From Anaeroplasma bactoclasticum (lineage in GTDB: Bacteria; Bacillota_I; Bacilli_A; ML615J-28; CAG-313), in assembly GCA_023667245.1 (NCBI GenBank), contig JAMPAL010000003.1:34173-98172 (forward strand): a stretch of 64,000 nucleotides of DNA, written 5' to 3'. The notes under the pieces were generated by a model. The model was not told the origin of the DNA. It worked only from the letters and a program-made list of their open reading frames with translations, and searched no databases. This document shows, piece after piece, positions 5,434-63,807 of this stretch (positions are counted from its first letter, which is position 1; every line of letters starts with the position of its first letter). A program made the position numbers and the translations under genes.

Positions 5434-5435
5434 AT

Positions 5436-43107: not shown

Positions 43108-43159
43108 AATTTTCCTCCCCTGATTTTTTAATCGAAAACATTTACTAATGTTTGATACC

Positions 43160-43188
43160 ATTATATAATAAAAAATAAATTATATCAA
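43160..43188 (-). promoter_or_regulatory. sigma-A type promoter of the opp operon (TTGATA-17-TATAAT)
   Basis: On the minus strand: TTGATA (complement of 43183-43188), a 17-nt spacer, TATAAT (complement of 43160-43165), about 50 nt upstream of the oppA start. Confidence 0.6.
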
Positions 43189-43771: not shown

Positions 43772-43774
43772 TCA

Positions 43775-44005
43775 AAACATATGATATGGAAATAGTAATC
43801 TATTCTTATCTTGTAAAGTGAACAATGGAGAGTGGGAACATTGTTAAGAAAGATAGATGAATGGATCCATAGATGTAAAAAGAGGAAATGCTTTTTCGTT
43901 TTAACCGCGTTAAGGTTTCGAGAATATAAGTAATTGCACTTATATTGAATAAAGGTGGTACCACGATGCTTTCGTCCTTTTGAGGACAAAAGCATTTTTT
44001 TATTT
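43775..44005 (+). promoter_or_regulatory. T-box riboswitch leader of trpS (expected Trp specifier)
   Basis: T-box consensus AATAAAGGTGGTACCACG at 43948-43965, overlapping the terminator ATGCTTTCGTCC (43966-43977) / GGACAAAAGCAT (43984-43995) + TTTTTTT, immediately upstream of the trpS RBS AAAGGAG. Confidence 0.8.
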
Positions 44006-44026
44006 TATGCATAAAGGAGATATTAT

Positions 44027-45028
44027 ATGAAAACTATTATATCAGGAATTCAGCCTTCTGGTAGACTGACGCTAGGAAATTATCTTGGCGCTATTAAAAA
44101 TTTTGTTGATCTACAAAATAATGGAAACTATGACGAATTTTTCGTTTTTATTGCTGATTTACACGCCATTACGGTTCCAAAAGACCCCATTCAATTGAGA
44201 AAAACAATTAAAGAACTTGCGGCACTATATTTAGCATGCGGATTAAATCCCGATAAAGTTACCTTATTTATCCAATCTGAAGTACACGAACATGCAGAAA
44301 TAGGCTATTTATTACAAACAATTACTTATATAGGCGAACTAGAAAGAATGACCCAATATAAAGACAAAAAAGTAAAACAAATAGAAGGTGTGTCTAGTGC
44401 ACTACTCACTTATCCTGTCCTAATGGCTGGTGATATTTTATTGTACAATGCAGATGGTGTTCCCATTGGACACGATCAAAAACAACATTTGGAATTGACA
44501 AGAAATTTAGCCGAACGATTCAATGCAAAATTTGGTGAGTTTTTTCACGTCCCAGAACCAATCATTGCTCCTCAAGGTGCAAAGATTTGCTCCCTTCAAG
44601 ACCCAACCAAAAAAATGTCTAAATCCGATCCAATTGAAAAAGCTTGTATTTATTTAGACGATACTGCTGCCATTGTTCGGAAAAAAATTGCGAGCGCTGT
44701 AACTGATAGTGATGGTAGTATTCGCTATGATCCTATTCATAAACCTGGTGTTTCTAATCTGATGACTATTCTATCTTGTTGTACTGGTGAAAGTATGGAT
44801 TCTATTGAAAAACGACTACAAGGTTGTGGATATGGCGTTTTAAAAGAAAATGTAAGTAATGCAATTATAGAAGTACTTACACCTATTCAAGAACGCTATC
44901 AAGCTTTTTTAAATGACAAAGAAGGCTTAAATGTAATTTTAAATCAAGGGCGGGATAAGGCAAGTTATTTTGCTAAAAAAAATCTAGTCAAAATCAAAAA
45001 GAAAATGGGTGTAGGTAGAATTATTTAA
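44027..45028 (+). CDS. trpS: tryptophan--tRNA ligase
   Basis: 333 aa with a class I HIGH-like block (SGIQPSGRLTLGNYLG) and KMSKS. Confidence 0.95.
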   Translation: MKTIISGIQPSGRLTLGNYLGAIKNFVDLQNNGNYDEFFVFIADLHAITVPKDPIQLRKTIKELAALYLACGLNPDKVTLFIQSEVHEHAEIGYLLQTITYIGELERMTQYKDKKVKQIEGVSSALLTYPVLMAGDILLYNADGVPIGHDQKQHLELTRNLAERFNAKFGEFFHVPEPIIAPQGAKICSLQDPTKKMSKSDPIEKACIYLDDTAAIVRKKIASAVTDSDGSIRYDPIHKPGVSNLMTILSCCTGESMDSIEKRLQGCGYGVLKENVSNAIIEVLTPIQERYQAFLNDKEGLNVILNQGRDKASYFAKKNLVKIKKKMGVGRII

Positions 45029-45038
45029 CAAATAAAAA

Positions 45039-45076
45039 CAGTCTTAAAGGTAAACATATCTTTAAGACTGTTTTTC
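45039..45076 (+). terminator. rho-independent terminator of trpS
   Basis: Inverted repeat cagtcttaaag / ctttaagactg followed by TTTTT. Confidence 0.7.
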
Positions 45077-45122
45077 TATGCAATTTATATGATATGTAAG
45101 TATACACCCGATAAAGTACGCC

Positions 45123-46904
45123 TTATACTTCACATAGGAATACTGCCTTTTTATCTTCTAATAACATACCGATTGTTATACATACCATAAATGAATTTTT
45201 CTTATTCATATGTATTCTTCTTGTTATTTCACTAGAATTGGTTGCATAGGTAGAAATAGCAATCATATCTTTATGGCTAAAGTGCCACTCATATTCATTT
45301 TTAGAGCTTTGCAAGCACATCATAGATTGACTGAATTTTTGATACGGAGGAGATTCTTTTTTAGAAATAAATTCCTTATTACTCTTTTTGATCATATGTA
45401 CATTTTGCAAACCTAAGAAAGAACTATCCTCCTGCTTTTTTTCATTGGGAGTAAACGGATTTAGTCTGAAATCGTTTGGATATATAGCATTATATACATT
45501 GAATAAAATTTTGATAGAGTAGCCCAATACAAGATGTATCGGGTTCTTTATATGAATGTCAAGACTTAACATATCTTTATTGCTTTTTGCATTTTCTATT
45601 TCTAAATAATATATCCCTTTTGATAGTATATATTCCTTATCTTTGGTTATATCACTTGCCTTTTTTATGTAAGGTTCAATTCTTTCTAGACTTTCATTAT
45701 ATAATGTAATATGTAGCGTTTCATAACTATGAGCAATAATTTGATAACATTGAACCGATTCTACATTCAGTTTATAATACATTTTGGATAAAGAATTGAT
45801 GATTTTTGTGTCTTTTATTTTTGAATTATCTTTATTTATGTCATATTCTTCTACAAATTCAATCGTATCTATGTGTCTACACCCTTGACATTTGAAGTAA
45901 TCTAAATTTCCAAAAGATGCAACCAATAGCATACGAGTAGAATCATTTCCATAATGATTACAACTTTGATAAGTTATTCTATGGTCCTCAAAATTTTTTA
46001 CATTATACATCACGCTATTGCAAATTGCACAAATCAAATCAATGGTATTATCTATATTCGACCTTTTCATCCAGATATGATTTTCATCCGTATGTAATCC
46101 CCTTGTAATGGCTATCCCCGCAATATCTTGATAGGTTGCAGCTAGCTGATAATTCAACCCATCTCCATATCCCATCAATAATTCTTCATGATGGTGATTG
46201 GGCGCACAATATGCATCCACATCCCTTAATCCTAAAACGTGTCCTAATTCATGCATTCCTGTGCGTTCTTTATGAATATAAGCCAATTGGGCGCTTATAT
46301 CCTGATTTTGATAAAAATAATGCAGATTTACATTCATATACCATTTCTCATAATGTATATGACGCAAACGTGGTGTATGTGTATCTATCTCGGTTCCTAC
46401 ACCGAGTGGCGCAGTTGAGGCAATGTAGGGTGCTGTAGCATCAATTGGATAAATTAGCAAATTATAATTGTCTTTTGTGCCTTCTTCTATTGTGATCAAT
46501 TGTTTTTTTATTCTACCACCAAGTGAATCATACATGTAATAAAATACATCATTCCATTTGCATAAACTTTTTATAAAAGCGTTTTGAATCTCATCTGCTA
46601 TTTCTTTTGAAACATCTGTTGTCCATGTATAATCCACATCATCTTTTGCATGATCTGAAACATAATATCGTATTATACCCGTATCTTCGCTCAAATGTAA
46701 GTATTCATCATACTCCAAAAAAGGACGATGCAATAAATACCATAATTCATCTTCTCCTTCTTGATTTTTTGATGGTTGGCAAACATCATATGTCACATCT
46801 AATACATCTGAATGAGCAAAAATAGTATCAGAAGGAACCATTTTATAAATAAAAACAAAAAATAATACACATGCTAAAAGAAACTTTGATTTCATTATTT
46901 TCAC
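45123..46904 (-). CDS. secreted zinc metallopeptidase (metzincin-like HEXXHXXGXXD) with a C-terminal Cys-rich zinc-ribbon-like region
   Basis: 593 aa with a signal peptide, MHELGHVLGLRD, and downstream CAICNSV...C...CQGC cysteine clusters. Confidence 0.6.
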   Translation of the reverse strand: MKIMKSKFLLACVLFFVFIYKMVPSDTIFAHSDVLDVTYDVCQPSKNQEGEDELWYLLHRPFLEYDEYLHLSEDTGIIRYYVSDHAKDDVDYTWTTDVSKEIADEIQNAFIKSLCKWNDVFYYMYDSLGGRIKKQLITIEEGTKDNYNLLIYPIDATAPYIASTAPLGVGTEIDTHTPRLRHIHYEKWYMNVNLHYFYQNQDISAQLAYIHKERTGMHELGHVLGLRDVDAYCAPNHHHEELLMGYGDGLNYQLAATYQDIAGIAITRGLHTDENHIWMKRSNIDNTIDLICAICNSVMYNVKNFEDHRITYQSCNHYGNDSTRMLLVASFGNLDYFKCQGCRHIDTIEFVEEYDINKDNSKIKDTKIINSLSKMYYKLNVESVQCYQIIAHSYETLHITLYNESLERIEPYIKKASDITKDKEYILSKGIYYLEIENAKSNKDMLSLDIHIKNPIHLVLGYSIKILFNVYNAIYPNDFRLNPFTPNEKKQEDSSFLGLQNVHMIKKSNKEFISKKESPPYQKFSQSMMCLQSSKNEYEWHFSHKDMIAISTYATNSSEITRRIHMNKKNSFMVCITIGMLLEDKKAVFLCEV

Positions 46905-46990
46905 CCCATCTTTTTTCCTATATTATATAGCAGAAAAAAGATGAAAGATGTCGAATTTTAGTATGATTTCATATAGATTTATATTTGTTT

Positions 46991-47018
46991 ATAAAAAAGG
47001 ACATACCAAAGTATGTCC
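46991..47018 (-). terminator. rho-independent terminator ending the long MurNAc/Etf-LDH operon
   Basis: Perfect 8-bp GC-containing stem ggacatac-caaa-gtatgtcc, followed on the minus strand by UUUUUUAU, 8 nt after the stop of the FAD oxidase gene. Confidence 0.75.
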
Positions 47019-47025
47019 TGCATTC

Positions 47026-48426
47026 TTATTCTACTACTTTTCCTGGATTTAAAATATCATTGGGATCAAAGACCGCTTTAATTCCTTTCATTAAACGAAC
47101 TTGATTTTCTCCAAGTACTTCTTTCATATAAGTTTTCTTGGCATAACCAATGCCATGCTCACCAGAAACGAGTCCTCCTACTGCTTTTGCCTTTTTATAC
47201 ATTTCATCAAAGATTGCGGATAGCTTTTCTTCAAACTCTGTATGACTATAAGCATCTTTACAAATATAAATATGAAGATTACCATCTCCAGCATGCCCAA
47301 ACGATGGAATTCGAATTTGATATTTTTCGGCAAGTTCATAAGTAAATTTAATATAATTGGCAATCTCACTACGAGGTACAACAACATCACACTCATCCAT
47401 TTGTGTAGTTGATGCTTTGATAGCCTCTAAGAAAGCCCCTCTAGCTTTCCATACAGATTCTTTTCTTTCTTCAGTGTCTACAATAAAAACATCAGTTGCT
47501 CCTAGCTGATTGAGACATACATCAGCAGCAAGTTGATAATTATAATTCAGTTCTTCTTTTGTTTTCCCCTCAAAAGTTAAAAGGATGTATGAATCACTTT
47601 TGGTATCTGGAAATTTTTTTCCTAAGAATTCTTCTGCAAATAAGATAGTTTGCCGTTCAAAAAATTCGATTGCGGTTGGAGAAACTTTTGCTTTAATAAT
47701 TTCTGGTACTGCATCTAGTCCCTCTTGTTCAGTTGGAAAAGGAACTAGCAAACTAATACTTTCTACTGGTTTCGGGTCCAATTTTAAAATAGCCTTGGTA
47801 ATAATACCTAAAGTGCCTTCACTACCAATCATCAGTTGTTTGAGCGGATATCCTGTTGAATCTTTTACTACCTTTCTACCAAACCATTCAATATCACCAT
47901 TAGGTAACACAACCTCTAGTGCCCTTACCCAATCTCTTGTTACACCATATTTTACTGCACGCATACCACCTGCATTAGTGGCAATATTTCCACCTATAGT
48001 CGCACTTTTTTCACCCGGGTCTGGTGCATAAAAATATCCTTTTGGCTCTACATAATCATAAATCTCCATAAGCAGAACACCAGGTTCAACGGTTAATGTC
48101 AAATTAGATTCGTCTAATTCCAAAATGTGATTCATTTTAGATGTGTTGATGATAATACCACCAAATAGTGGTACACATGCCCCAACAAGTCCTGTTCCGC
48201 TTCCTCGAACGACAACAGGAATCAAATGTTCGTTCGCATATTTCATAATTTTGGATACTTCCTCGGCGCTTTTGACATACATCATGACATCAGGTTTGCC
48301 ACTTACTGTTCCTAATTCATCTTTACCAAAATCTTCTGAAATTGCATCACCTTCTAAAAAGTCTTGTTGGTCTACAATTGTTTTTAAATAGGCTATATCT
48401 TGATTTGTTATTTTATTATATGCCAT
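47026..48426 (-). CDS. FAD-binding oxidoreductase of the GlcD/Dld family (putative FAD-dependent D-lactate dehydrogenase, LctD-like)
   Basis: 466 aa with an FAD-binding PCMH domain ([16 protein letters not shown]...[13 protein letters not shown]) and the C-terminal FAD-linked oxidase domain. It sits directly downstream of etfBA. Confidence 0.75.
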
Positions 48427-48435
48427 TTTTTCCTC

Positions 48436-49656
48436 CTACAATATCCCTTTTGTTTTCTTGATATTTTCAATCAATTGAGGTACAACTTGATAAATATCTC
48501 CTACAATGCCATAATGTGATACATCAAAAATGGATGCGGATGGATCTTGATTGACAGAAACTATCATTTGGCTACCTGTCATACCTGCTGTATATTGAAC
48601 TGCACCACTGATTCCTAAATTAATGATTAATTTAGGAGCTACTGTCCTTCCACTTAAACCCACTTGAAATTTAGCATCTTTGAAACCGGATTCAATTAAT
48701 GGTCTTGTTACCGCAACGACACCACCTAGTAAATTAGCTAGTTCTTCTGCCATTGCCAAATCTTCTTTTGACTTAAATGCTCTTCCACAAGCGACAATAA
48801 CATCTGCTTCTGAAATATCCGTTACTTTTTCTTTTTCTTTGATTTCAAGTGTTTCAATATGGCTTGACTTTTCAATTGACGTCGTATCCATATACACTTT
48901 TTCGCCAAATGGAATGACTTTTTCAGGCATTTTAAAAATTTTGTAACGTACTGTTGACATTTGTGGGCGATGATTTGGACAAACAATTTGAGCCATAACA
49001 TTACCACCAAAAGCAGGTCGTACTTGAATTAAATCAGAGTTTTCCTTCATTCCTAAAATGGTACAATCTGCAGTCAAACCAGTTCTAAAATGAGCTGCAA
49101 CTCTTGGTGCAAAACTTCTGCCAAGCGATGTTCCTCCATATAAAAGAACAGAAGGTTGAACTTTTGAAACAAAGTCTTCAACACATCTTGCATATCGTTC
49201 CATATTGAATGTGCTATATGCATCATCTTCATAGATAAATACCTTATCTACTCCATATGCCAATATTTCTTCCGCATAAGCATCATTTTTTTCCTTTGAC
49301 CCAATTAAGATGGCATATACTGGATGTTGACATACTGCGGCTAACTCCTTTGCCTTTCCAATAAGTTCGAAAGACACAGGATGAATACCATCTAAGTCTA
49401 CTTCAACAAATACACTCACACCAACCCACTTGGTTTTATCAATTCGTGGTGTACTATCTTGAACAATTTCTTCAGTTACCACACCATTTGGTCCTTTTTT
49501 AGCGCATAAGCCACAATTTTTGCATCCTGCAGTAAAGTTCAATTGTTGATTGGTATACTCCAATCCGCCAAAAGGACATATTTTGATTACTGCCTCAGCA
49601 GTTTCTTGATTCACTTTTTCTTGATGAATTGTTAATTTTTTTGCCATATCAATCAC
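48436..49656 (-). CDS. etfA: electron transfer flavoprotein alpha subunit with an N-terminal ferredoxin-like [4Fe-4S] domain (bifurcating-type EtfA, LctC/CarE-like)
   Basis: 406 aa with an N-terminal Cys cluster (ICPF...CKNCGLC), then a canonical EtfA FAD-binding domain (VACGRAFKSKEDL...GISGAVQYTAGM). Confidence 0.8.
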   Translation of the reverse strand: MIDMAKKLTIHQEKVNQETAEAVIKICPFGGLEYTNQQLNFTAGCKNCGLCAKKGPNGVVTEEIVQDSTPRIDKTKWVGVSVFVEVDLDGIHPVSFELIGKAKELAAVCQHPVYAILIGSKEKNDAYAEEILAYGVDKVFIYEDDAYSTFNMERYARCVEDFVSKVQPSVLLYGGTSLGRSFAPRVAAHFRTGLTADCTILGMKENSDLIQVRPAFGGNVMAQIVCPNHRPQMSTVRYKIFKMPEKVIPFGEKVYMDTTSIEKSSHIETLEIKEKEKVTDISEADVIVACGRAFKSKEDLAMAEELANLLGGVVAVTRPLIESGFKDAKFQVGLSGRTVAPKLIINLGISGAVQYTAGMTGSQMIVSVNQDPSASIFDVSHYGIVGDIYQVVPQLIENIKKTKGIL

Positions 49657-50445
49657 CTAAATATATTTTTTGTCCTTTAAAATTTCTATCAGTCGATCAA
49701 CTTGTTCAGGTACACTTCCTTCAAGCACAATTTTATCTGTATTTCTTTCTGGTGGAAACATTCTTTCTACTTGAGTAGGAGATCCTTTGAGTCCATAATG
49801 GTTTTCATCTTGATCCATAACATCTTGGAACGTAATCATTGGTATATTGATATTTTCCATAGATTTTCCTCTCTTATATGATGGCAAGCGTGGTGTCACA
49901 TGCCCTTTATCTATCGTAATCAAGCATGGATACATCACCTCAAATGTTTCAATTGTTTTATCCATAGATGCACGAACTACAATTGATTTTTCTTTCACTT
50001 CTAATACTTTTTCCACATAAGCAATATGCGGAATACCTAGGTACTCTGCCATCTCTGCACCTACTTGAGCAGTATCACCATCTGTTGTTTGTTTCCCACA
50101 AACAATCAAATCAAAATCGCCTAATTTGCGAATTCCTTGGCTAATCGTGTATGCTGTAGCAACAACATCGGCACCACCAAATTTGCGATCACTAATCAGC
50201 ATCGCCTCATCACACCCCATCCAAAGAGATTCTTGTAATACTGCTTTTGCAGGTGGAGGTCCCATTGTAATAGTTTTAACTGTTGCACCAGTTTGTTCTT
50301 TAATGCGTAAAGCAGTTTCGATTCCATACAAATCATATGGATTCATTTTTGTATTATTTCCATCCCGAATTAAAACGCCTGTAACTGGATCAATTTTAAC
50401 ATCTGATGAGGCTGGAACTTGTTTGATACATACAACAATATTCAT
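49657..50445 (-). CDS. etfB: electron transfer flavoprotein beta subunit
   Basis: 262 aa: MNIVVCIKQVP...DLIVCGKQTTDGDTAQVG, an EtfB signature. Confidence 0.85.
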   Translation of the reverse strand: MNIVVCIKQVPASSDVKIDPVTGVLIRDGNNTKMNPYDLYGIETALRIKEQTGATVKTITMGPPPAKAVLQESLWMGCDEAMLISDRKFGGADVVATAYTISQGIRKLGDFDLIVCGKQTTDGDTAQVGAEMAEYLGIPHIAYVEKVLEVKEKSIVVRASMDKTIETFEVMYPCLITIDKGHVTPRLPSYKRGKSMENINIPMITFQDVMDQDENHYGLKGSPTQVERMFPPERNTDKIVLEGSVPEQVDRLIEILKDKKYI

Positions 50446-50458
50446 ATTTTTTCCTTCC

Positions 50459-51196
50459 CTATTTTAAAAATTCTGTTACTTTTTGATGAATAATCTGCCG
50501 ATAGGCTACTTTTGCATAGCCATGTTCAGAACCATCTACTAAAATATATTCACTATTTGGATATAAATCGTCATACCGTTTACTATATGTTGGCGGAACC
50601 GCTTGATCACAAGATCCTTGTATAATCAGTACTGGTTTAGTAAACTTCTCAATATCTTTATACATATCATACCCTTCAAACGATTTTTGAATAGCACTAT
50701 TCATATAATAGCCTCCCATATCAATATTGCCATCTAAATTCATTTGACTTTGCGTAAAGCGTTTTTGGATAATTTCTGGAATATTGCCAGCTGGAGAAAG
50801 TAATATCAGTTTCTCTATTCGATCCTGAACGAGCAAAGAAACCCTACTAGCAATAGCCCCCCCCATTGAAAAACCAAGCAAAACAATGGGTCTACATTGA
50901 TTCAATTGATATGCTTCTTCAATGATAGCTAGACCATCTTCTATTTCAGTAAATAACGTATAATCGGTAAAATCACCATCGCTTTCCCCGTTTCCCATAA
51001 AATCATAGCGCAAAGTGGCAATATGCTGCTCTACCAAAGTTTTTGTCAATTGCTTAAACAAATAGCCATGTTCATTTTTATGTCCTGTAAAACCATGAAA
51101 CATCACTACTATTGTTTTGTAATCATCCTCTGGCCTAGAAAATAAGCCTCTCAAGATATATCCATTTACTTCTAATGCTTTTTGTTCAATTATCAT
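50459..51196 (-). CDS. alpha/beta-fold hydrolase (serine esterase/peptidase S33-like)
   Basis: 245 aa with an HGFTGH oxyanion region, the nucleophile elbow GFSMGG, and a C-terminal Asp/His (GSEHGY). Confidence 0.7.
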   Translation of the reverse strand: MIIEQKALEVNGYILRGLFSRPEDDYKTIVVMFHGFTGHKNEHGYLFKQLTKTLVEQHIATLRYDFMGNGESDGDFTDYTLFTEIEDGLAIIEEAYQLNQCRPIVLLGFSMGGAIASRVSLLVQDRIEKLILLSPAGNIPEIIQKRFTQSQMNLDGNIDMGGYYMNSAIQKSFEGYDMYKDIEKFTKPVLIIQGSCDQAVPPTYSKRYDDLYPNSEYILVDGSEHGYAKVAYRQIIHQKVTEFLK

Positions 51197-52116
51197 TTTA
51201 TATGTCCTCGTTGTTCTAAAGAAGCAATTGCCTTTCGAATATTTCCGTTATTCTCAAATAACAATTGTTGTATTTCCTCTTCATTTTCAATATTTGTTAA
51301 ATAAGATAGAATCACACCTTTTACAGTTTGATAGCGATTTAACGCCTCTTTTGCATCGGCTTCTTCATATCCTGTTACTTCTTTTATCATATATAGCATT
51401 CTTGCAACCAATTTTTGATTGGTAGGTTGCAAATCCACCATTAAGTTTTCATATACTTTACCTAGTCGAATCATCGCAGTAGTTGTTATCATATTACAAA
51501 TTAATTTTTGGGCAGTTCCAGATTTCATTCTAGTAGAACCTGTTATGGGCTCTGGACCAGTAATTGCTTCAATTGGATAATCTACAATATTAGCTAATTT
51601 ACTCGTTGAAGCTGTTGTAATGCAACCTGTTTTGCAACCGATTTGTTTCGCATAGCGCATACCTGATAAGACATAAGGTGTTCTCCCGCTTGCCGCAATA
51701 CCAACAACAAAGTCCTTTGAATGTATGTGTATACGATCTAAATCTATTTTTGCAAGTTCTTCAGAATCTTCTGCTCCTTCTACTGCAGTTATCAAAGCAT
51801 CCACTCCCCCCGCAATCAATCCTACCACCATATTTTTATCTACCCCATATGTAGGAGGGCACTCTGATGCATCAAGAATGCCTAATCTACCCGAGGTCCC
51901 TGCTCCCATATAAATCAATCTTCCCCCTAATTGAAAAGTGAGGACAAGCGCATCAACTAAATCTGTTATTTGTGGAATTGCTTGTTCAATGACAAAAGGA
52001 ATAGTTTTATCTTCATTATTGATTTTCTTCAATATTTCCATTGTTGAAACTCGATCAATATCCATTGTATTTGGATTTCTCGTTTCAGTTGTAATTTTCT
52101 TTAAATTTATTTCCAT
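51193..52116 (-). CDS. murQ: N-acetylmuramic acid 6-phosphate etherase
   Basis: 307 aa with a SIS domain: LIYMGAGTSGRLGILDASECPPTYGV...GIAASGRTPYV, a MurQ signature. Confidence 0.9.
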   Translation of the reverse strand: MEINLKKITTETRNPNTMDIDRVSTMEILKKINNEDKTIPFVIEQAIPQITDLVDALVLTFQLGGRLIYMGAGTSGRLGILDASECPPTYGVDKNMVVGLIAGGVDALITAVEGAEDSEELAKIDLDRIHIHSKDFVVGIAASGRTPYVLSGMRYAKQIGCKTGCITTASTSKLANIVDYPIEAITGPEPITGSTRMKSGTAQKLICNMITTTAMIRLGKVYENLMVDLQPTNQKLVARMLYMIKEVTGYEEADAKEALNRYQTVKGVILSYLTNIENEEEIQQLLFENNGNIRKAIASLEQRGHIK

Positions 52117-53255
52117 ATATTCTCCTTACAAGGTGGATAAGTGATATTCCCTAAGACAACAGAGTGCTTGGCACCAGTCACACTTTTTACATTTGAAGGC
52201 TTTTGCAATATAGTCATATGGCCAAGAATTGCAAACCCAAATGCTTCATATGCATCTGTCCTCTCCTCCACTATAACATCTATTCCCAATTTTTGCTTGA
52301 ATATCTCTAAGATAAATGCATTATGCGCTCCACCGCCTGAAACAATCAATTCATCAATGGGACCTAAAAAACGTTGATATTGATCAATAATGGAATAAGC
52401 AGTAAACGCAGTAAGGGTTGCAATGATGTCTTCATTTCTTTGACCTAATCTTCTCATTTTGTCTATAATCCCATTCAAAAAAACATCATTATATTTTTCT
52501 CTTCCCGTACTCTTTGGATAAGTTGCTTTAAAATAATCATCTGCTAATAACTCTTGCAACATCCCTTTATGAATAATGCCACTTTTTGCAATCTGACCTT
52601 CATTATCAAAGGGTAAGCGATATAATTTTTGCATTGCACCATCAATAAGCATATTTCCAGGCCCTGTGTCAAAAGCAATTACATCCTCTATTGTCCCGTT
52701 TTGTTTTAAATAGCATACATTACCAATTCCACCAATATTTTGCAATGCAATATTTTTCGTTTTACTTTGATATAACAAATGATTCACAAATGGAATAAGC
52801 GGTGCCCCACTGCCACCAGCTGCCATATCCATTGTTCTAAAATTGCTAATCACCATTTTATTAAAGCGATAAGCTAAGATGCTAGGATCACCGATTTGTA
52901 GTGTAGATGAAGCATACCCATCCATATGATTGGGATTATGCCAGATGGTCTGACCATGCATTGCAATATAATTTACATCTTCCATATTTATATTGTATTT
53001 TTCAATAAACTGGGAAAGCGCATCTGCATAGGCCTCACTGACCTCCACATTTAAACTGCAAATTTTTTGCACATTAGAGGTTGATAAATTACTAGCCTCT
53101 TGAATTTTTTGAACCAATTCTTTTATATATGGATATGTTTGAAAAGCAAGAATCGTATATTCAAACGATTCGCTTTGTTGGATTATATTCACTAAACAAA
53201 TATCTATGCCATCTAATGAAGTCCCACTCATCATTCCGATTGATTTCATTTTCAT
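52107..53255 (-). CDS. anmK: anhydro-N-acetylmuramic acid kinase
   Basis: 382 aa: IGMMSGTSLDGIDICLV...QNIGGIGNV...FDTGPGNMLID, an AnmK signature. Confidence 0.85.
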   Translation of the reverse strand: MKMKSIGMMSGTSLDGIDICLVNIIQQSESFEYTILAFQTYPYIKELVQKIQEASNLSTSNVQKICSLNVEVSEAYADALSQFIEKYNINMEDVNYIAMHGQTIWHNPNHMDGYASSTLQIGDPSILAYRFNKMVISNFRTMDMAAGGSGAPLIPFVNHLLYQSKTKNIALQNIGGIGNVCYLKQNGTIEDVIAFDTGPGNMLIDGAMQKLYRLPFDNEGQIAKSGIIHKGMLQELLADDYFKATYPKSTGREKYNDVFLNGIIDKMRRLGQRNEDIIATLTAFTAYSIIDQYQRFLGPIDELIVSGGGAHNAFILEIFKQKLGIDVIVEERTDAYEAFGFAILGHMTILQKPSNVKSVTGAKHSVVLGNITYPPCKENIWK

Positions 53256-54178
53256 CCCATCCTATTCTGTTTCATATTATAACATGCTCTTCTGTAAACA
53301 CCTAACATTTGATGGATTATAGACTCCTCAAATGTTAGGTCAATATTCCTTTGTTTGAAATAGTCATGAATACCCTTTATAATATATTGTCCTTCATATT
53401 CTAAAAATCCTCCACGCAATCCGATTTTTGTTTTGGGGGAAATAGACAACCATTGAATCAAATGCTCGACTTGTTTTCCCAGTAATACTCCTTGCGTATA
53501 GAGCAAATTTTTTGCATGTAAATCTCCGTTTTGTGCACAAGACTTGATATAAATACTCCATTTTGCGATTTCATCTTTTGTATGTTGATAAAATAAATGG
53601 TTTAAATCTCTTATATTTTCAAAACCTAGCGCGTCTAGAAAACCCTTTTCCAATTGATCTAATTCCTTCCCCGATTCATATTTATCAATCATCTCAACTG
53701 CTAAATCATGAACAATAGCATATGCACTTCCAGATTCTCTAATCAAATGTCCCCATCCACCAATCAACTGACTTTTTCCATCACGTTCACCATATATGGC
53801 AACACCAGTTCCTGATATAACTACAATACCACTAGTATCATTTTCTTCTATGACTGAATATAATGCTGTTACTGTATCACTTGTGATTTCACATATTGTC
53901 TGATACTTTTTTTCAAAGAAATCATCCATTTCCCGATGGGATGAAAGTGCACTAATACCCGAAACGCCCATTTCTATGTATTCAATTTCAATTTCTTCTG
54001 CAGATAATTTAGACAATGCCAGTTGAATGGTATCATCAATATGTTGATACCAATGCTGTATATCTACTGCGGGAGAACCTGGTTTTCCAATACCAGTTGT
54101 AAGTATCTTTCCCTTGCAATCAAAAATAGCTACTTTCGTTGAGGTACCACCTGCATCTACACATATACATACCTTCAT
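53252..54178 (-). CDS. BadF/BadG/BcrA/BcrD-type ATPase (putative MurNAc/GlcNAc kinase, MurK-like)
   Basis: 308 aa with an ASKHA-fold N-terminus (CICVDAGGTSTKVAIFD) and ISGTG. It lies between anmK and the DUF871 gene. Confidence 0.65.
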   Translation of the reverse strand: MKVCICVDAGGTSTKVAIFDCKGKILTTGIGKPGSPAVDIQHWYQHIDDTIQLALSKLSAEEIEIEYIEMGVSGISALSSHREMDDFFEKKYQTICEITSDTVTALYSVIEENDTSGIVVISGTGVAIYGERDGKSQLIGGWGHLIRESGSAYAIVHDLAVEMIDKYESGKELDQLEKGFLDALGFENIRDLNHLFYQHTKDEIAKWSIYIKSCAQNGDLHAKNLLYTQGVLLGKQVEHLIQWLSISPKTKIGLRGGFLEYEGQYIIKGIHDYFKQRNIDLTFEESIIHQMLGVYRRACYNMKQNRMG

Positions 54179-54181
54179 ATC

Positions 54182-55222
54182 TTATATATCATCCATTATA
54201 AACATAAATTGTTTTTGCTGTCGAATTTCATCTAAAATGAATTCACTTATTTCTATATGTCCTACTACATTAACTCGTTCATCCCTAGGTAAAGATTGAA
54301 GGACAATGTTGATTTCTCCCTTATAACGGAGAAAGTCTTGATTGTCAATTGTGATATCTCCCCTTTTTCTTTCTACCATTTGAAAGGGAGGAAATGTCGC
54401 AATATTAGTTTTTGTGGAAACACGAAGCAATACATTATTAAAATCAGGACGTATCCGGTATATCCCTTTTAAATAATCCCGATACATTATAGGCAATTCA
54501 GACTTTAATTGAATGGGCAGTAAAATCAGTTTAGTTTGATGGTGAATAAGTTGTTTCAATTCTATCTCACTTGCATAGGCATCTCCAAAGTATATTTCAT
54601 CTATTCCAATAGCTTTCAGTTCTTCAATAGCCATATCTAAAGAACTATATCGATGTTCTTCTATGCTTGGTAGACCTTGATATAATGGAGGCCTATGCCC
54701 CACTTTTGATGGAAGAAATGCTCCGACTGATATACCATATTGATGATAATAATCTATACGCTCTTTGCAAAAAGCTATACTATGTCCTGTATAAAGTTTT
54801 GGGTAATAATTAAAACTAACGCGAACATGCTTTAAATTTAATCCTTTTTCAATGAGGTTTTCAAATCTATTATTGGAAAGTGTTGATGCATTGAGTTCGA
54901 CGAAAAAGGGTGCTTCTTGTGATAATTGAATGATATCATCATCGCTAAATCCATAATCTAATCTCAGTGCATACAAATTTTCTAAATAATCCATTTTGTC
55001 ATATGCAGATTTTGAAATATCTAAAGAAAACTTCATTTCGAGTTGTTTTGCCTTTTTCAAACAAACTTGTAAATCTTGATAATTTCTATCTGCCTCATTA
55101 ATATGTGCCGATGAAAAAATCATTTCTATTCCATTTTGTTTTGCTTTTTCCATATAGGCTAAATTGGTTTCTAAATCATAGTCTTTTAAACCATTGAAAA
55201 TGGAAATTCCTGACTTGTACAT
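54182..55222 (-). CDS. DUF871-family protein (putative 6-phospho-N-acetylmuramidase, MupG-like)
   Basis: 346 aa; the size and context suggest MupG. The family call rests on my recall of overall features, so it is only moderate. Confidence 0.5.
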   Translation of the reverse strand: MYKSGISIFNGLKDYDLETNLAYMEKAKQNGIEMIFSSAHINEADRNYQDLQVCLKKAKQLEMKFSLDISKSAYDKMDYLENLYALRLDYGFSDDDIIQLSQEAPFFVELNASTLSNNRFENLIEKGLNLKHVRVSFNYYPKLYTGHSIAFCKERIDYYHQYGISVGAFLPSKVGHRPPLYQGLPSIEEHRYSSLDMAIEELKAIGIDEIYFGDAYASEIELKQLIHHQTKLILLPIQLKSELPIMYRDYLKGIYRIRPDFNNVLLRVSTKTNIATFPPFQMVERKRGDITIDNQDFLRYKGEINIVLQSLPRDERVNVVGHIEISEFILDEIRQQKQFMFIMDDI

Positions 55223-55232
55223 AAAATACCTC

Positions 55233-56399
55233 TTAAAGCGTATAAATATAATATTTTTGACTCAATGTTTTAAAATCCTTTGAATACTTTTCAAGGCGAC
55301 GCAATTGCTCATCAAGTGGTACACTATTTTCGATAATGTCATCAGTACCCGCCTCAAATTGAAATAATCCTGGTCGTCCTTCTACATAGGGCTTATTAAG
55401 TTGAAAATATTGTGGATAAGTGGTGCGAATGTGATATAACATAGTCCAACTCGTTTTTACAGCTTCAAATGTATTTCGATCTGTAATATGTACATAGACT
55501 CCACCACATAATTCTCCTACGTACTTGGAAAAAGTAGGGGTAAAATATTGTGGTCTAAAATATACTCCAGGTAATTGATAACTATTCAACTCTTTTGCAA
55601 GTTTCTCTGATTTTAACCATGGTGCACCAATAAGTTCAAACGGTGTTGTTGTTCCTCTTCCTTCAGCTACATTTGTTCCTTCAAAAATACATGTTGCATT
55701 ATATACGTATGCGGTTTGAATCGTTGGAAGATTAGGAGTAGGAATAACCCATGGAAGTCCTGTATCTTCAAAGTCCATATTTCTTGTATAATTCATCATA
55801 GGAATAACCGTTAATTTACAATGTATACCATATTCTTCATTGAATAATTGAGCCAATTCCCCCATTGTCATGCCATGACGTTGAGCAATGGGATAATATC
55901 CAACAAATGACCGATATTTCTGAATATCGATTGTGTTTCCCTCTACCTTTGCACAATTGATTGGATTAGGTCTATCAAACACAACAAATTCCTTGTCATA
56001 TTCAGCACAAGCTTGCATACAATATGCCATTGTATAAATAAAGGTATAATATCTAGATCCACAATCTTGAATATCAATAGACATTATATCTACTTTATCC
56101 ATTACTTCTTTAGATGGCTTTTTAGATGAACCATAAAGGCTATATACAGTGATGCCAGTTTCCTCATCTATATAAGTCTCTAAATGTTGTCCTGCTTGAA
56201 TGCTTGCGCGAACACCATGTTCTGGTGAAAATAAGCCCACTAAATTAGTCTTTTCTTTCAAAATATCAATTGAAGAAGTAAAATTTCCATCAATTCCAGT
56301 TGGATTTGTAATTAATCCAATTCGTTTTCCCATAAATGTGTCTTTAAATTCATCAATTCTTTCAATTCCTAAAATGGTTCTTTTCTTTTGATTATTCAT
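55233..56399 (-). CDS. DUF1343-family protein (putative exo-beta-N-acetylmuramidase, NamZ/YbbC-like)
   Basis: 388 aa: GKRIGLITNPTGIDGNFTSSIDIL...LVGLFSPEHGVRA, the conserved N-terminal block of YbbC/NamZ proteins. Confidence 0.65.
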   Translation of the reverse strand: MNNQKKRTILGIERIDEFKDTFMGKRIGLITNPTGIDGNFTSSIDILKEKTNLVGLFSPEHGVRASIQAGQHLETYIDEETGITVYSLYGSSKKPSKEVMDKVDIMSIDIQDCGSRYYTFIYTMAYCMQACAEYDKEFVVFDRPNPINCAKVEGNTIDIQKYRSFVGYYPIAQRHGMTMGELAQLFNEEYGIHCKLTVIPMMNYTRNMDFEDTGLPWVIPTPNLPTIQTAYVYNATCIFEGTNVAEGRGTTTPFELIGAPWLKSEKLAKELNSYQLPGVYFRPQYFTPTFSKYVGELCGGVYVHITDRNTFEAVKTSWTMLYHIRTTYPQYFQLNKPYVEGRPGLFQFEAGTDDIIENSVPLDEQLRRLEKYSKDFKTLSQKYYIYTL

Positions 56400-57087
56400 C
56401 TTCTAATTCCTCCTCGATTTGTTTTGTGATTTTATCGAAATCAACTTTCTCAAACTGATAATATATAGGTTTTGTTATTTTGGTGATTAAAAATATAGGT
56501 AATGAAATGCCAATAATCATCCATACTGCAAGCAATCCTGGAATAGCTACACAAAGCAGTAATAATCCAACAATAATGCCAAAAGTAATCATCATTGCAA
56601 TTGTTGTAAATATATAGCGAAATGCCATGTAAAAAGAGGTTTTCACAATATCAACTTTACGCAACTTAGGTAGTATAATTATCAAATACGGAATATGCAC
56701 AACCGAAAATATGTAAATAATCAAACAAATAACCATAACTACTAGTCCTGCTTGTGCAATCCACTCCATTGAGCTTTGATGAAATTCTTGAAAAATCCAA
56801 AAAAAGAAAGCATAAATAATCATTGCCAAAATGAGTAATAAACATATTCCCAACAAAAATGATTTAACAAAATATTGTTTTACATTTCTAAAATAAGCTT
56901 TTATAATATTGCCCTCGGCTAAATCATTACGAATGGTTGCAACACATGCAACAAGCACAGGAAATATTGTAATAATTGGCATAGACAAAATAATTGTTAG
57001 AATATTTATGACCAATAGTTTATATAACAAATCAAAAAAACGATATGTTTTTGAGAAATATTTTTTATCATTTTCTTCTAGTTTCAT
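56392..57087 (-). CDS. DUF624 (YesL-like) integral membrane protein, first gene of the operon
   Basis: 231 aa, about 6 TM helices, with a YFSKTYRFFDLLYKLLVINILTIILSMP N-terminus typical of YesL-family proteins that accompany sugar transporters. Confidence 0.5.
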   Translation of the reverse strand: MKLEENDKKYFSKTYRFFDLLYKLLVINILTIILSMPIITIFPVLVACVATIRNDLAEGNIIKAYFRNVKQYFVKSFLLGICLLLILAMIIYAFFFWIFQEFHQSSMEWIAQAGLVVMVICLIIYIFSVVHIPYLIIILPKLRKVDIVKTSFYMAFRYIFTTIAMMITFGIIVGLLLLCVAIPGLLAVWMIIGISLPIFLITKITKPIYYQFEKVDFDKITKQIEEELEDE

Positions 57088-57127
57088 ATTTACCTCCTTT
57101 TTCGTAAGCGCTCACATTATTATATAT

Positions 57128-57136
57128 ATTATAACA
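57128..57136 (-). promoter_or_regulatory. possible extended -10 promoter element (TGtTATAAT) for the DUF624-murQ-etf operon
   Basis: The minus strand reads TGTTATAAT about 40 nt upstream of the DUF624 start. The -35 region is weak. Confidence 0.35.
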
Positions 57137-57163
57137 TAAAATCCTTTTTCTGTGTTGCATAAA

Positions 57164-57197
57164 GAAAAGAAAAAGTGATTCACGATTTCTGTGAATC
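57164..57197. terminator. bidirectional rho-independent terminator
   Basis: 9-bp inverted repeat gtgattcac / gtgaatcac with a T-run on the plus side and a T-rich tract on the minus side. It separates the lipoprotein gene from the downstream operon. Confidence 0.65.
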
Positions 57198-57222
57198 ACT
57201 TTTTTTCATTTTTAGATAGCTA

Positions 57223-59460
57223 CTATACTAAGTAACCCATGCTTCTCATTGTGTCACGATATTTTCCTACAATTGAATTTAATTCAGTAGCAGGAGAAAC
57301 ATCTGATTTTCTACAAATATTAGGGATAACAATCCACAATGCATCAGGTCCAAAGTGAGAACCACCACCAACACTCATACTTAATAATTCAGCCAATTCA
57401 AAGTAAGTTCTACCTTCAGTTGACATAATTACATCTGCATATAATGTGTTATCAAACTTAGTAATTAACCAGTTTCTATATGATTCTTCAGCAGATAAAG
57501 TTACTTTATCAGGGTCATCACCAAGTCCATCATATAAATCATACATAATTGCAAATAAGATTTTATTTGTAATACCATTTTTACCATTTTGTGTATCAAT
57601 AATAGAATAGCATGAAGTACTTCCGTAAGGAACTTGGAAACTTGAGCTACTTAAATCTAATCCGCTAATATAATCACCTGTTTCAGGATCTACTAATGGT
57701 TGTTCATTAGAAAGAATTGCATTTTGTTGTCTGCTTGTAGTAATTGTTGTTCCGCCTTGACCATCAGCAGTTGGATAGGGTACGCAACCAATTTCAAAAT
57801 CACAAACACCAAAACGTGTAGTATCACCTAAGAACCAAAGATCTCCATGATGGAATACAGATTGGCCAGCAGCAAATGAGGTAGCTACATCAGAAACACC
57901 ACGAGAACCATCATATAAATTACTAGTAGTTAATCTTTGAATAGCACTGAATCTATTCAATGTGCTTGTAGAAGTTAAGTTCAACATTGGAGGAGTCATA
58001 CCATCTCCAGGAGTGGCAATTGATCCACCAGTAGATGCCACTGAACCAATTAAGAATTCAGGGTATCCCATTGCTAATGCTTTATATTCAGTACCTTTTG
58101 CAGCTAATTTAGTTTGAAGTTCATTTGCATAACTTTCAAATGTAGACCAAGTCCATTTTCCTTTAAACCAAAGTTCAGCAGGATTTTCCATACCCATTTC
58201 TTCTATTAATTCAACATTGAAATACATAAAGTAATCAGAATGTACACTTCCTTGAATATATCCATATACTTTATTTCCTGATGAAGCAACTTGGTTATTT
58301 GTCATATCTTGATGATAAGTATGATTTGTACCATCCCATACACCTGATTCAACTTCTTCATAACCAATTTCAGCAAAAATACCTGTTTGTGTACTCATAT
58401 CATATAATTCGGCTAAACAGTTAGCACCAACTAGTGTTGGAATCCATGAAGATGCAATATTGATAATATATTGGTCTTTACTTTGTAATTCTCCATTAGG
58501 GCCTTTATCCTTGATATATTTTACGCGGTCAGGTCCCCAAGGTGCTGAGTTATCCCAATCTTGATATTCAATTTGAATTTGATATTTTCTTTCAACTTCT
58601 CTTTCTTGTTGTTGTCTAATTCTTTGATCACTTGCACTATAACCATCATCAAATGGGTCATAAGAAGATTTTGGAAGTACAAGAATAACCACTTTCATAT
58701 TTCTTCCTTGCCATCCGCCAACTTGTTGCGCAGGTTCCCACTTTGGTGTATATACAGTAGTTCCTCCATCTTGTTTCCATGTTGCAACTAATGTAATATT
58801 TTCGCTAATAGTTTGATTTTGATTAAATGATTCTCCATTTAATGTCCAACCTTGGAAAGTATACCCACTCTTAGTAGGATTTGCTGGTAATGTTAATTTA
58901 TCACCTTTTTTAAGAGTGACTGGAGTAATATTACTACCACCATCTGTATTAAATGTTACAGTTACAGTTTCTACACCTGCTTGTGCTTTCCATTCAGCAG
59001 TCAGTGTAATATTACCAGTTACTGTAGCATTAAAGTCATAATCTGCACCGTTTAATTTCCAACCAACAAAATCATATCCACTTCTTGTAGGATCTGCTGG
59101 TTTTTGTACTTTTCCATTTACACTTACTTGTACTGAAGCAATTGTACTACCACCAGCAGTGTCAAATGTTACAGTATAAGTAGTTGCTGTATTTTGATCC
59201 CATTTTGCTTTCAAAGTAATATTTTCTTGAATAGCCGTACCAAAGTTAAATTTTGAACCATCTTTTTCCCAATAAGCGAAAGTATAGCCTTCTCTTGTAG
59301 GATCAGCTGGTTTTGTAACATATTTACCCTTTTTCACTTCTTGCGTTTCTACACTAGACCCGCCATTACTATCAAAAGTGACTTTAAACTTTTTAGAACA
59401 ACTTGTTAAAGTAAAAAGAGTAAATAAAGCAATCACTAGAATAAAAAATCTTCTCTTCAT
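57223..59460 (-). CDS. lipoprotein with three List-Bact repeats and a large C-terminal solute-binding-protein-like domain
   Basis: Lipobox LTSC. Three repeats (GYTFAYWEKDG, GYDFVGWKLNG, GYTFQGWTLNG). A roughly 480-aa C-terminal domain resembles family-1 extracellular SBPs (uncertain). Confidence 0.55.
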   Translation of the reverse strand: MKRRFFILVIALFTLFTLTSCSKKFKVTFDSNGGSSVETQEVKKGKYVTKPADPTREGYTFAYWEKDGSKFNFGTAIQENITLKAKWDQNTATTYTVTFDTAGGSTIASVQVSVNGKVQKPADPTRSGYDFVGWKLNGADYDFNATVTGNITLTAEWKAQAGVETVTVTFNTDGGSNITPVTLKKGDKLTLPANPTKSGYTFQGWTLNGESFNQNQTISENITLVATWKQDGGTTVYTPKWEPAQQVGGWQGRNMKVVILVLPKSSYDPFDDGYSASDQRIRQQQEREVERKYQIQIEYQDWDNSAPWGPDRVKYIKDKGPNGELQSKDQYIINIASSWIPTLVGANCLAELYDMSTQTGIFAEIGYEEVESGVWDGTNHTYHQDMTNNQVASSGNKVYGYIQGSVHSDYFMYFNVELIEEMGMENPAELWFKGKWTWSTFESYANELQTKLAAKGTEYKALAMGYPEFLIGSVASTGGSIATPGDGMTPPMLNLTSTSTLNRFSAIQRLTTSNLYDGSRGVSDVATSFAAGQSVFHHGDLWFLGDTTRFGVCDFEIGCVPYPTADGQGGTTITTSRQQNAILSNEQPLVDPETGDYISGLDLSSSSFQVPYGSTSCYSIIDTQNGKNGITNKILFAIMYDLYDGLGDDPDKVTLSAEESYRNWLITKFDNTLYADVIMSTEGRTYFELAELLSMSVGGGSHFGPDALWIVIPNICRKSDVSPATELNSIVGKYRDTMRSMGYLV

Positions 59461-59474
59461 ATTTAATCCTTTCT

Positions 59475-60434: not shown

Positions 60435-60486
60435 TTTTTATAAAGAGGTGAAGTTTACCTCCTCCACCTCCTTTTTAATCTAAGAA

Positions 60487-63618: not shown

Positions 63619-63665
63619 AAAATAATTTTCCTCCTATTTATATATTTGAAAGCGTTTGCGATTAT

Positions 63666-63694
63666 ATTATAACATAACAAAGAATCCTTTGCAA
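63666..63694 (-). promoter_or_regulatory. sigma-A type promoter (TTGCAA-17-TATAAT) of the surface-protein gene
   Basis: On the minus strand: TTGCAA (63689-63694), a 17-nt spacer, TATAAT (complement of 63666-63671). An RBS AGGAGG lies 7 nt before the ATG. Confidence 0.65.
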
Positions 63695-63797: not shown

Positions 63798-63807
63798 ATT
63801 CCTCTCA

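Follow-up and report, generated by a model that had tools for sequence, protein, structure and literature searches.

The locus described here lies in a 64,000-nucleotide stretch of Anaeroplasma bactoclasticum DNA (GenBank assembly GCA_023667245.1, contig JAMPAL010000003.1, positions 34,173 to 98,172 of the forward strand), referred to below as the window. Positions 47026-57087 of its minus strand hold ten successive open reading frames (ORFs). Genes for the catabolism of N-acetylmuramic acid (MurNAc) are followed there by a trio resembling LctBCD, the electron-confurcating lactate dehydrogenase complex of Acetobacterium woodii. The ORF listing places the ten genes exactly where a first-pass annotation of the sequence had put them, and all ten family names given in that annotation were recovered with Pfam and NCBIfam. 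The genes and signals of the operon, in the direction of transcription, are as follows.

57170-57204, minus strand: terminator of the upstream gene, marking the 5′ boundary of the operon; 14-bp stem and T-run, from the terminator scan
57128-57136, minus strand: predicted extended −10 promoter element TGTTATAAT, a consensus match only, about 40 nucleotides (nt) 5′ of the DUF624 start
57103-57116, minus strand: cre-like palindrome TGTGAGCGCTTACG, 3′ of the promoter and 5′ of the ribosome-binding site (RBS); sole match to TGWNANCGNTNWCR in the window
56392-57087, minus strand: gene 1, DUF624/MusI-like polytopic membrane protein; Pfam DUF624 E = 5e-8, hydrophobic sequence
55233-56399, minus strand: homologue of the exo-β-N-acetylmuramidase NamZ (GH171); NamZ_N E = 8e-83, NamZ_C E = 4e-46
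54182-55222, minus strand: homologue of the 6-phospho-N-acetylmuramidase MupG (GH170); MupG_N E = 2.5e-53, MupG_C E = 1.2e-22, near-full profile coverage
53252-54178, minus strand: BadF/BcrAD-type sugar kinase, MurK-like; Pfam BcrAD_BadFG E = 1e-23
52107-53255, minus strand: AnmK, anhydro-MurNAc kinase; Pfam AnmK E = 7e-97
51193-52116, minus strand: MurQ, MurNAc-6-phosphate (MurNAc-6P) etherase, the D-lactate-producing step; GKRP_SIS_N and SIS domains
50459-51196, minus strand: α/β-fold serine esterase, translationally coupled to murQ; Pfam Hydrolase_4
49657-50445, minus strand: EtfB/LctB with a bifurcating-Etf signature; best PDB match 7QH2_B, E = 4e-101
48436-49656, minus strand: EtfA/LctC with an N-terminal one-cluster ferredoxin domain; best PDB match 7QH2_A, E = 5e-134
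47026-48426, minus strand: LctD, predicted FAD-dependent (NAD-independent) D-lactate dehydrogenase subunit; 7QH2_C E = 4e-191, full length
46998-47019, minus strand: intrinsic terminator closing the operon; 9-bp GC-rich hairpin and T-run

The junctions between the ten genes, read 5′ to 3′, measure −8, +10, +3, −4, −10, −4, +13, 0 and +9 nt, in agreement with the close packing first proposed (one strand, no gap or overlap above 13 nt). An ATGA overlap links the stop codon of murQ with the start codon of the esterase gene, and the RBS of etfB, GGGAAGGA, occupies the 13-nt gap that separates the esterase gene from etfB. No convincing minus-strand terminator was found by the terminator scan in the interior of the block, either before etfB or elsewhere; there are only weak stems of 5-7 bp, in a number expected by chance. 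The strong terminator that had been placed at the 3′ end is borne out by the hairpin at 47019-46998, with a folding energy of −15.4 kcal/mol (z = −5.5 relative to shuffled sequences).

At the 5′ end, a GGAGG precedes the start codon of the DUF624 gene, 3′ of the TGTTATAAT element. TG-N-TATAAT-like elements stand at the equivalent place in related loci, cited here by L numbers (L001, L002, L004-L008, L010 and L019). The palindrome TGTGAGCGCTTACG is a weak candidate for a CcpA/LacI-type operator. At least one match of the TGWNANCGNTNWCR type also occurs in 24 of 100 shuffles, and the palindrome is kept only in the two closest relatives. Because nearly all genes of the window lie on the minus strand, the operon call rests on the spacing and the flanking signals, which suggest that the ten genes form one transcript.

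The 5′ part of the operon is devoted to MurNAc. NamZ and MupG are the proteins that had been described as NamZ-like DUF1343 and MupG-like DUF871, and the presence of both domains of each family supports these assignments. Judged by eye, the N-terminus of NamZ (MNNQKKRTILGIERIDEF; MNNQKKRTILGIERIDEFKD) has no hydrophobic leader; the protein lacks a signal peptide and is therefore predicted to be cytoplasmic. All enzymes of the operon share this lack of a signal peptide. In five relatives (L018, L021, L022, L024 and L025), MupG carries an N-terminal GH3 (NagZ) fusion, giving proteins of 872-876 aa. AnmK lies above the NCBIfam equivalog cut-offs (NF007148, 440.1 bits against 387; NF007142, 437.3 bits against 435), as does MurQ with its NCBIfam cut-offs (TIGR00274, 358.6 bits against 302; NF003915, 395 bits against 168).

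The best PDB match of the BadF/BcrAD kinase is 8ZO3, an ‘N-acetylmuramic acid/N-acetylglucosamine kinase’ (E = 6e-18), and its score with NCBIfam NagK_SO3507 (72 bits) is far under the cut-off of 370. It is assigned as a putative MurK-like 6-kinase of MurNAc and N-acetylglucosamine (GlcNAc). Gene 1 scores 53.9 bits with NCBIfam MusI_fam, under the cut-off of 160, and is probably an accessory protein of a sugar importer of the ATP-binding cassette (ABC) type. No phosphotransferase system (PTS) gene or RpiR-type gene that could stand for MurP or MurR is present among the ORFs of positions 44000-64000.

The conservation of the arrangement was followed by a scan for LctD in one genome per species of the GTDB collection, which gave 80 loci, and by tblastn with all proteins of the window. 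The order NamZ-MupG-kinase-AnmK-MurQ-esterase-EtfB-EtfA-LctD is colinear in 21 species-level genomes, completely or as far as the contig reaches. These are labelled Bacilli, Mollicutes, Acholeplasmataceae, Tenericutes metagenome-assembled genomes or ‘Staphylococcus sp. CAG:324’. Identities fall as low as 65% for LctD, 55% for MurQ and 34% for the esterase, and the spacing between the esterase and etfB ranges from −8 to +94 nt. The linkage is kept in 21 of the 22 informative related genomes; in four more close relatives the locus stops at a contig edge and is uninformative.

Erysipelotrichia and Clostridia were the groups for which the first-pass annotation had suggested a synteny survey; among the loci covered here, the murQ-etfAB-lctD linkage is found in one Mollicutes-like clade of Bacilli and in none of the Clostridia loci of the set (L027-L080), which have no murQ near lctBCD. 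Neighbour joining places the linked LctDs in a single clade of 27 sequences, the window included, and within the lineage the fusion therefore arose once and has been retained. The retention of the arrangement is evidence of selection for it. Relatives without lctBCD were found by a murQ-anchored scan of metagenome contigs and by context look-ups. In L083, an ArsC/Spx-family gene comes right after NamZ-MupG-AnmK-MurQ-esterase. The order in L119 is NAGPA-GH3(NagZ)-NagB, a 958-aa unknown protein, GNAT, a substrate-binding protein (SBP), DUF624-NamZ-AnmK-MurQ-esterase and then trpS. As both L083 and L119 have SBP, DUF624, the MurNAc genes and the esterase but lack lctBCD, lctBCD is an extra module added 3′ in one sub-lineage.

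The LctBCD-like architecture that had been proposed for EtfB, EtfA and the FAD-dependent dehydrogenase is upheld, as the best PDB matches of all three are the subunits of the A. woodii complex (Ldh-EtfAB, 7QH2) and the family signatures are kept. The definition of the EtfA ferredoxin motif and the list of LctD residues were taken from the A. woodii structure paper (PMC9232219). The use of Gly123 (A. fermentans numbering) to separate bifurcating from canonical Etf follows PMC12630350. EtfA holds the motif C-x17-C-x2-C-x2-C (CPFGGLEYTNQQLNFTAGCKNCGLC) at residues 27-51; this is found in 18 of the 21 linked orthologues, the remaining three having x16 spacing. A gap-free alignment to A. fermentans EtfB (4KPU_B) places Gly123 of EtfB in a DGDTAQ motif, which is kept in every one of the 21 linked loci. 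The trio agrees with the LctBCD family in each of the sequence features considered, and confurcating activity is predicted.

The same signatures bear on whether the Etf could be an ordinary non-bifurcating carrier, handing the electrons of LctD to a different partner in the manner of Fusobacterium nucleatum, for example to a membrane acceptor or an acyl-CoA dehydrogenase. Ldh-ETF-Bcd systems are known (PMC12630350), and a gene for the partner could lie in another part of the genome. Against this, Gly123 and the DGDTAQ motif are retained, EtfA keeps the ferredoxin domain that is required for confurcation in A. woodii (PMC9232219), and no acyl-CoA dehydrogenase was found among the annotated ORFs of the window. 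An ordinary Etf is regarded as very unlikely.

LctD has the Pfam domains FAD_binding_4 and FAD-oxidase_C. The VAO/GlcD family also includes glycolate oxidase, D-2-hydroxyglutarate dehydrogenase and broad-range LDHD, and NCBIfam puts LctD nearest GlcD, though far under the cut-off. Another D-2-hydroxy acid or a lactyl conjugate (glycolate, D-2-hydroxyglutarate or a D-lactyl-peptide) might therefore be its substrate. The title of PMC10589216 presents LDHD as a general dehydrogenase for D-2-hydroxyacids, and the neighbouring esterase has no assigned substrate of its own. The substrate and metal site is nevertheless identical to that of A. woodii LctD at all ten positions (Leu80, Arg328, Leu332, Glu344, Asp346, His377, His384, Tyr386, Glu422 and the catalytic His423), and the same ten residues are found in all 79 relatives examined. 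In the PDB search, the match to 7QH2_C (E = 4e-191) compares with at best 3e-63 for other characterised members of the family. MurQ, in addition, releases free D-lactate (Jaeger 2005, as cited in PMC6165865). A substrate other than D-lactate is considered highly improbable.

With A. woodii the trio shares not only the sequence features above (residues of the active and metal sites, ferredoxin domain with one cluster, EtfB signature of bifurcation) but also the subunit order etfB-etfA-ldh. It differs in that the LctA regulator, LctE permease and LctF racemase of the lctABCDEF operon are missing, and in that the trio stands last in an operon for MurNAc catabolism, joined to its 3′ end. The lactate is external in A. 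woodii, whereas here it would come from within the cell through MurQ. The absence of accessory genes is shared by the linked loci: a lactate permease, a LarA racemase or a GntR/FCD regulator lies within 10 kb in none of the 21 murQ-linked loci, whereas at least one of them does so in 29 of the 59 unlinked lct loci. None is present among the annotated ORFs of the window. The order in Clostridium is GntR/FCD regulator, EtfB, EtfA, LctD, lactate permease and LarA racemase; that in C. difficile is regulator, racemase, EtfB, EtfA and LctD. Since the D-lactate would be made in the cytoplasm, neither a transporter nor a racemase would be needed, which fits the absence of these genes.

The stereochemistry of related systems is consistent with this source, as the LctD-type enzymes examined in this respect are D-specific. 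Anaerostipes hadrus, which has no racemase, consumes only D-lactate (PMC8914356). PMC12630350 gives the Ldh of F. nucleatum a Km for D-lactate of 0.65 µM and describes the Megasphaera enzyme as D-specific. Corynebacterium glutamicum expressing MurQ has been reported to accumulate lactate (PMC6165865).

The accessory genes also bear on a different view of lctBCD, as a general lactate module standing at the end of an amino-sugar operon. It would oxidise lactate taken up from the gut or act in reverse as a fermentative sink (pyruvate + 2 NADH + oxidised ferredoxin → lactate + reduced ferredoxin). In the original study of the A. woodii enzyme, the reaction was reportedly reversible in vitro. LctBCD is widespread as a stand-alone system of lactate utilisation (PMC8914356), one clade member (L013) keeps lctBCD apart from murQ, and the genomes of the lineage are compact with most genes on one strand. 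However, the 21 linked loci all lack a nearby lactate permease, racemase and lactate-sensing regulator. The junctions of 0-13 nt, the translational coupling and the lack of a separate promoter or terminator also argue against it, as does a colinearity that persists while the esterase drops to 34% identity. A reverse sink would be expected beside general glycolytic genes, not MurNAc genes. An unrelated D-lactate-dehydrogenase-like gene has, moreover, been recruited to murQ-namZ in Alteromonadales, as set out below, and a general role of the module is considered unlikely.

In two contigs from the murQ-anchored scan, L092 and L100, a sodium symporter, a BadF kinase, MurQ, NamZ, a 964-aa fusion of GlcD, 4Fe-4S and CCG domains, and an Amidase_2/beta-lactamase protein are encoded together. 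The fusion protein has its nearest relatives in Colwellia, Thalassotalea, Pseudoalteromonas and Paraglaciecola, where D-lactate dehydrogenase is a frequent annotation for them. These GlcD + Fe-S proteins of Alteromonadales are Dld-II-like, measure 950-980 aa and have no Etf partner. Dld-II is taken here to be the type of D-lactate dehydrogenase described in Shewanella, and GlcD + Fe-S fusions like the Shewanella enzyme are presumably respiratory rather than ferredoxin-linked. Colwellia piezophila (L116) has the order MurQ-NamZ-Dld. Thalassotalea profundi (L117) has an NlpC/P60 protein, epimerase, symporter, kinase, MurQ, NamZ, (MurR) and Dld, followed by an outer-membrane protein, an amidase and a D-Glu cyclase. 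In Pseudoalteromonas sp. (L118), the Dld-II-like enzyme stands among GH3, D-Glu cyclase, D-amino-acid aminotransferase and M15 peptidase genes, with no murQ within 8 kb.

The likeness to the present operon is that an annotated D-lactate dehydrogenase adjoins murQ and namZ in an island of wall catabolism. The differences are the single GlcD + Fe-S + CCG fusion without Etf in place of LctBCD, and the hosts, which are Gram-negative gammaproteobacteria from marine samples with uptake through a TonB-type receptor and a sodium symporter. On gene content, a different D-lactate-dehydrogenase-like gene, with a substrate taken from annotation only, was independently recruited to murQ-namZ in an unrelated phylum. 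This recruitment is the strongest comparative support for MurQ as the source of the D-lactate. An assignment of L092 and L100 to Bacteroidota, made from the TonB-type receptor, was dropped, since the nearest protein relatives are from Colwellia, Thalassotalea and Pseudoalteromonas. The peptidoglycan-catabolic islands of Alteromonadales also hold an oxoprolinase subunit.

The earlier proposal that MurQ-derived D-lactate is the substrate of LctBCD is supported through comparative genomics by the linkage in 21 of 22 genomes, the absence of accessory genes, the D-stereochemistry and the Alteromonadales parallel. It is considered likely that LctBCD oxidises this D-lactate. The best explanation of the operon is the catabolism of peptidoglycan glycan with its own route for disposal of the lactyl group. 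Imported MurNAc fragments would be trimmed in the cytoplasm, by NamZ at a terminal MurNAc and by MupG at a terminal MurNAc-6P. The MurK-like kinase would convert MurNAc, and AnmK 1,6-anhydro-MurNAc, to MurNAc-6P, which MurQ would split into GlcNAc-6-phosphate (GlcNAc-6P) and D-lactate. Confurcation by LctBCD would then take the form D-lactate + reduced ferredoxin + 2 NAD+ → pyruvate + oxidised ferredoxin + 2 NADH. Pyruvate:ferredoxin oxidoreductase (PFOR) could restore the reduced ferredoxin, giving acetyl-CoA and ATP, and GlcNAc-6P would pass to fructose-6-phosphate via NagA and NagB.

Several points weigh against oxidation of MurQ-derived D-lactate by LctBCD. By the tree, the 21 genomes trace to one ancestral event and are not 21 independent observations, and in L013 lctBCD follows sbcCD, away from murQ. 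The reported reversibility leaves room for the opposite direction. D-specificity is extrapolated from relatives, because the A. woodii LctBCD was assayed with D/L-lactate (PMC9232219). The window holds no gene for ferredoxin, PFOR, Rnf, hydrogenase or a substrate permease; NagA was not seen in it, NagA and the genes 5′ of nagB being seen only in the relatives L119 and L120, and nagB belongs to a separate transcription unit. The organism, furthermore, is known only from metagenomes.

Among known MurNAc systems, the murQ-murR-murP-amiE-nagZ-namZ operon of Bacillus subtilis and the MurP/MupG/MurQ system of Staphylococcus aureus are similar in layout, being of salvage type with MurQ at the centre and NamZ or MupG as exo-muramidase (PMC8054146, PMC6262408). 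In place of the MurP phosphotransferase transporter and MurR, which are absent here, the MurK-like kinase and AnmK would carry out the phosphorylation. The NamZ of B. subtilis is secreted with a signal peptide (PMC8054146), whereas the present NamZ has none. NamZ and MupG occur together here, yet were mutually exclusive in the survey of PMC8054146. The esterase and the D-lactate-oxidising complex are further additions. MurK of Clostridium acetobutylicum and the murT-murK-murQ cluster of Tannerella forsythia provide the precedent of a BadF-type kinase beside murQ and a PTS-independent route to MurNAc-6P (PMC10465942, PMC5790795). Those clusters differ in having no NamZ with MupG, AnmK, esterase or any lactate dehydrogenase.

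The closest metabolic precedent is Fidelibacter multiformis IA91, an anaerobe that lives on foreign muropeptides. According to PMC11652737 (citing Katayama et al. 2024), it converts MurNAc-6P to GlcNAc-6P and D-lactate, oxidises the latter to pyruvate with a D-lactate dehydrogenase, and also grows on D-lactate. It belongs to another phylum, and PMC11652737 states neither the type of dehydrogenase nor a linkage to murQ; here there is physical linkage to a confurcating LctBCD-type enzyme. The first-pass annotation had known of no description of the union of etherase and Etf/lactate dehydrogenase. The metabolic idea, oxidation of MurQ-derived D-lactate for energy, has already been published for Fidelibacter (PMC11652737). 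The LctBCD operon fusion itself appears to be new, as no paper combining MurQ or MurNAc with Etf, LctD or LctBCD was found in the literature searched. Its clade-wide conservation in uncultured gut Bacilli and the parallel Dld-II-like arrangement of Alteromonadales also appear to be new, as do two side features, the cytoplasmic NamZ together with MupG and the esterase after murQ.

The esterase has a triad of Ser110, Asp197 and His225 that is invariant in 22 orthologues. Among solved structures, it comes closest to cinnamoyl, feruloyl and chlorogenate esterases and to 7Q4H (E about 1e-36). As an orthologue trails murQ in the lctBCD-less loci L083 and L119, the esterase belongs to the MurNAc module. 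Weak homologues lie about 1.7 kb 5′ of etfB in Clostridium (L048, L052), but membership of the lactate module is ruled out by the same two loci, L083 and L119. A guess at its function is the removal of a 6-O-acetyl group from MurNAc, which would otherwise hinder phosphorylation at C6.

If the proposed reading is true, LctBCD, so far studied only for growth on external lactate, would have a second physiological setting. It would both clear and harvest the D-lactate made in the cell when muramic acid is split. The operon illustrates a way in which MurNAc could be fermented in its entirety by a strict anaerobe, and points to uncultured gut bacteria of reduced genome that may feed on the walls of other bacteria. 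Because a different D-lactate-dehydrogenase-like gene was independently recruited to murQ in marine bacteria, a possible annotation rule is suggested, in which a D-lactate dehydrogenase beside murQ marks catabolic rather than anabolic use of MurNAc. For research on wall recycling, the locus offers three oddities: a cytoplasmic NamZ, the joint presence of NamZ and MupG, and a conserved esterase after murQ.

Upstream of the operon, the minus strand continues with the following genes.

57223-59460, minus strand: lipoprotein with lipobox LTSC, three Flg_new (Listeria-Bacteroides) repeats and a C-terminal sugar-ABC substrate-binding fold
59475-60434, minus strand: GNAT acetyltransferase, 319 aa
60487-63618, minus strand: protein of 1043 aa; signal peptide, coiled-coil and C-terminal anchor
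63811-63999, minus strand: 3′ end of nagB (glucosamine-6-phosphate deaminase-like), cut by the window edge; C-terminal 63 residues

The C-terminal 507 residues of the lipoprotein have no Pfam match even at E ≤ 10. An AlphaFold2 model of residues 239-745, built from a 24-sequence alignment, has a predicted confidence (pLDDT) of 91. Its top Foldseek matches in the PDB are binding proteins for maltodextrin (MalE), trehalose/maltose and galacto-N-biose (GNB/LNB), at E about 2e-13. Some homologues carry SBP_bac_8 or SBP_bac_1. The model points to a highly divergent sugar-ABC substrate-binding domain, and the lipoprotein, with a gene that is conserved directly 5′ of DUF624 in relatives, is probably part of the same system. 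No CUT1 permease or ATPase genes lie near the lipoprotein gene, which leaves a gap in the route of uptake.

The 1043-aa protein has no sequence match in Pfam, NCBIfam or the PDB, and may be a surface factor of wall processing. The order unknown protein-GNAT-SBP recurs in L119 and L120, after NAGPA-GH3-NagB. The nagB gene that had been placed at the window edge was confirmed, in that its 63 residues match Pfam Glucosamine_iso (E = 1.4e-5, just under the cut-off and limited by the fragment), and a full NagB stands at the equivalent position in L119 and L120.

Three large proteins encoded elsewhere on the minus strand are presumed to be secreted: a 2104-aa Flg_new/Big_2/Amidase_2 protein (10225-16539), a 717-aa Flg_new + GH18 protein (21073-23226) and an 839-aa NAGPA phosphodiester glycosidase (5906-8425). 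They may produce the substrates of the operon. An importer of the Opp/Dpp type (34486-43161, minus strand) is unusually long, with a 915-aa binding protein, a 631-aa permease and ATPases with insertions. It is a possible candidate for the import of muropeptides or oligosaccharides. ORFs of similar size trail trpS in several related loci, their likeness to the Opp/Dpp set being one of size only.

A. bactoclasticum is said to have been named for its lysis of other bacteria; no paper joining Anaeroplasma bactoclasticum with the term ‘bacteriolytic’ was found in the literature searched. The identical LctD carries the label ‘MAG: Anaeroplasma bactoclasticum’ in one source and Prevotella or Staphylococcus in others. 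At 856-1911, the minus strand encodes a germination protease (Gpr, Peptidase_A25, E = 2e-103). The gene suggests a spore-forming, hence walled, member of a lineage usually called wall-less. Many genomes of Anaeroplasmataceae and RFN20/RF39 retain sporulation and wall genes (PMC10868615). The operon may serve recycling, scavenging or both. The first-pass annotation had spoken of MurNAc recycling, and the gene set for this is confirmed. Scavenging of foreign wall is at least as likely, because the operon enzymes lack signal peptides and the neighbouring genes encode presumably secreted wall hydrolases and a binding lipoprotein.

A more far-reaching proposal is that the operon, the lipoprotein, the 1043-aa protein, the GNAT protein, the Flg_new-repeat amidase and the GH18 protein form a dedicated ‘wall-eating’ system of an uncultured gut lineage labelled Anaeroplasma/Mollicutes. 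Foreign peptidoglycan glycan would be a main energy source, and the confurcating oxidation of the lactyl group, with PFOR and acetate kinase as the next enzymes, would yield ATP. The esterase would be a new cytoplasmic 6-O-acetyl-MurNAc deacetylase, and NamZ and MupG would process imported oligomers. This combination is put forward tentatively and is, as a whole, rather doubtful.

The remainder of the window includes a T-box leader (101 bits; 43772-43982, plus strand) 5′ of the tryptophanyl-tRNA synthetase gene (44027-45028), and a cluster of five tRNA genes (5065-5518, minus strand). Directly 3′ of the operon terminator, a 593-aa protein (45123-46904, minus strand) has a hydrophobic N-terminus and a faint matrixin-like (HExxH) match, and is found only in the two closest relatives, L001 and L002.

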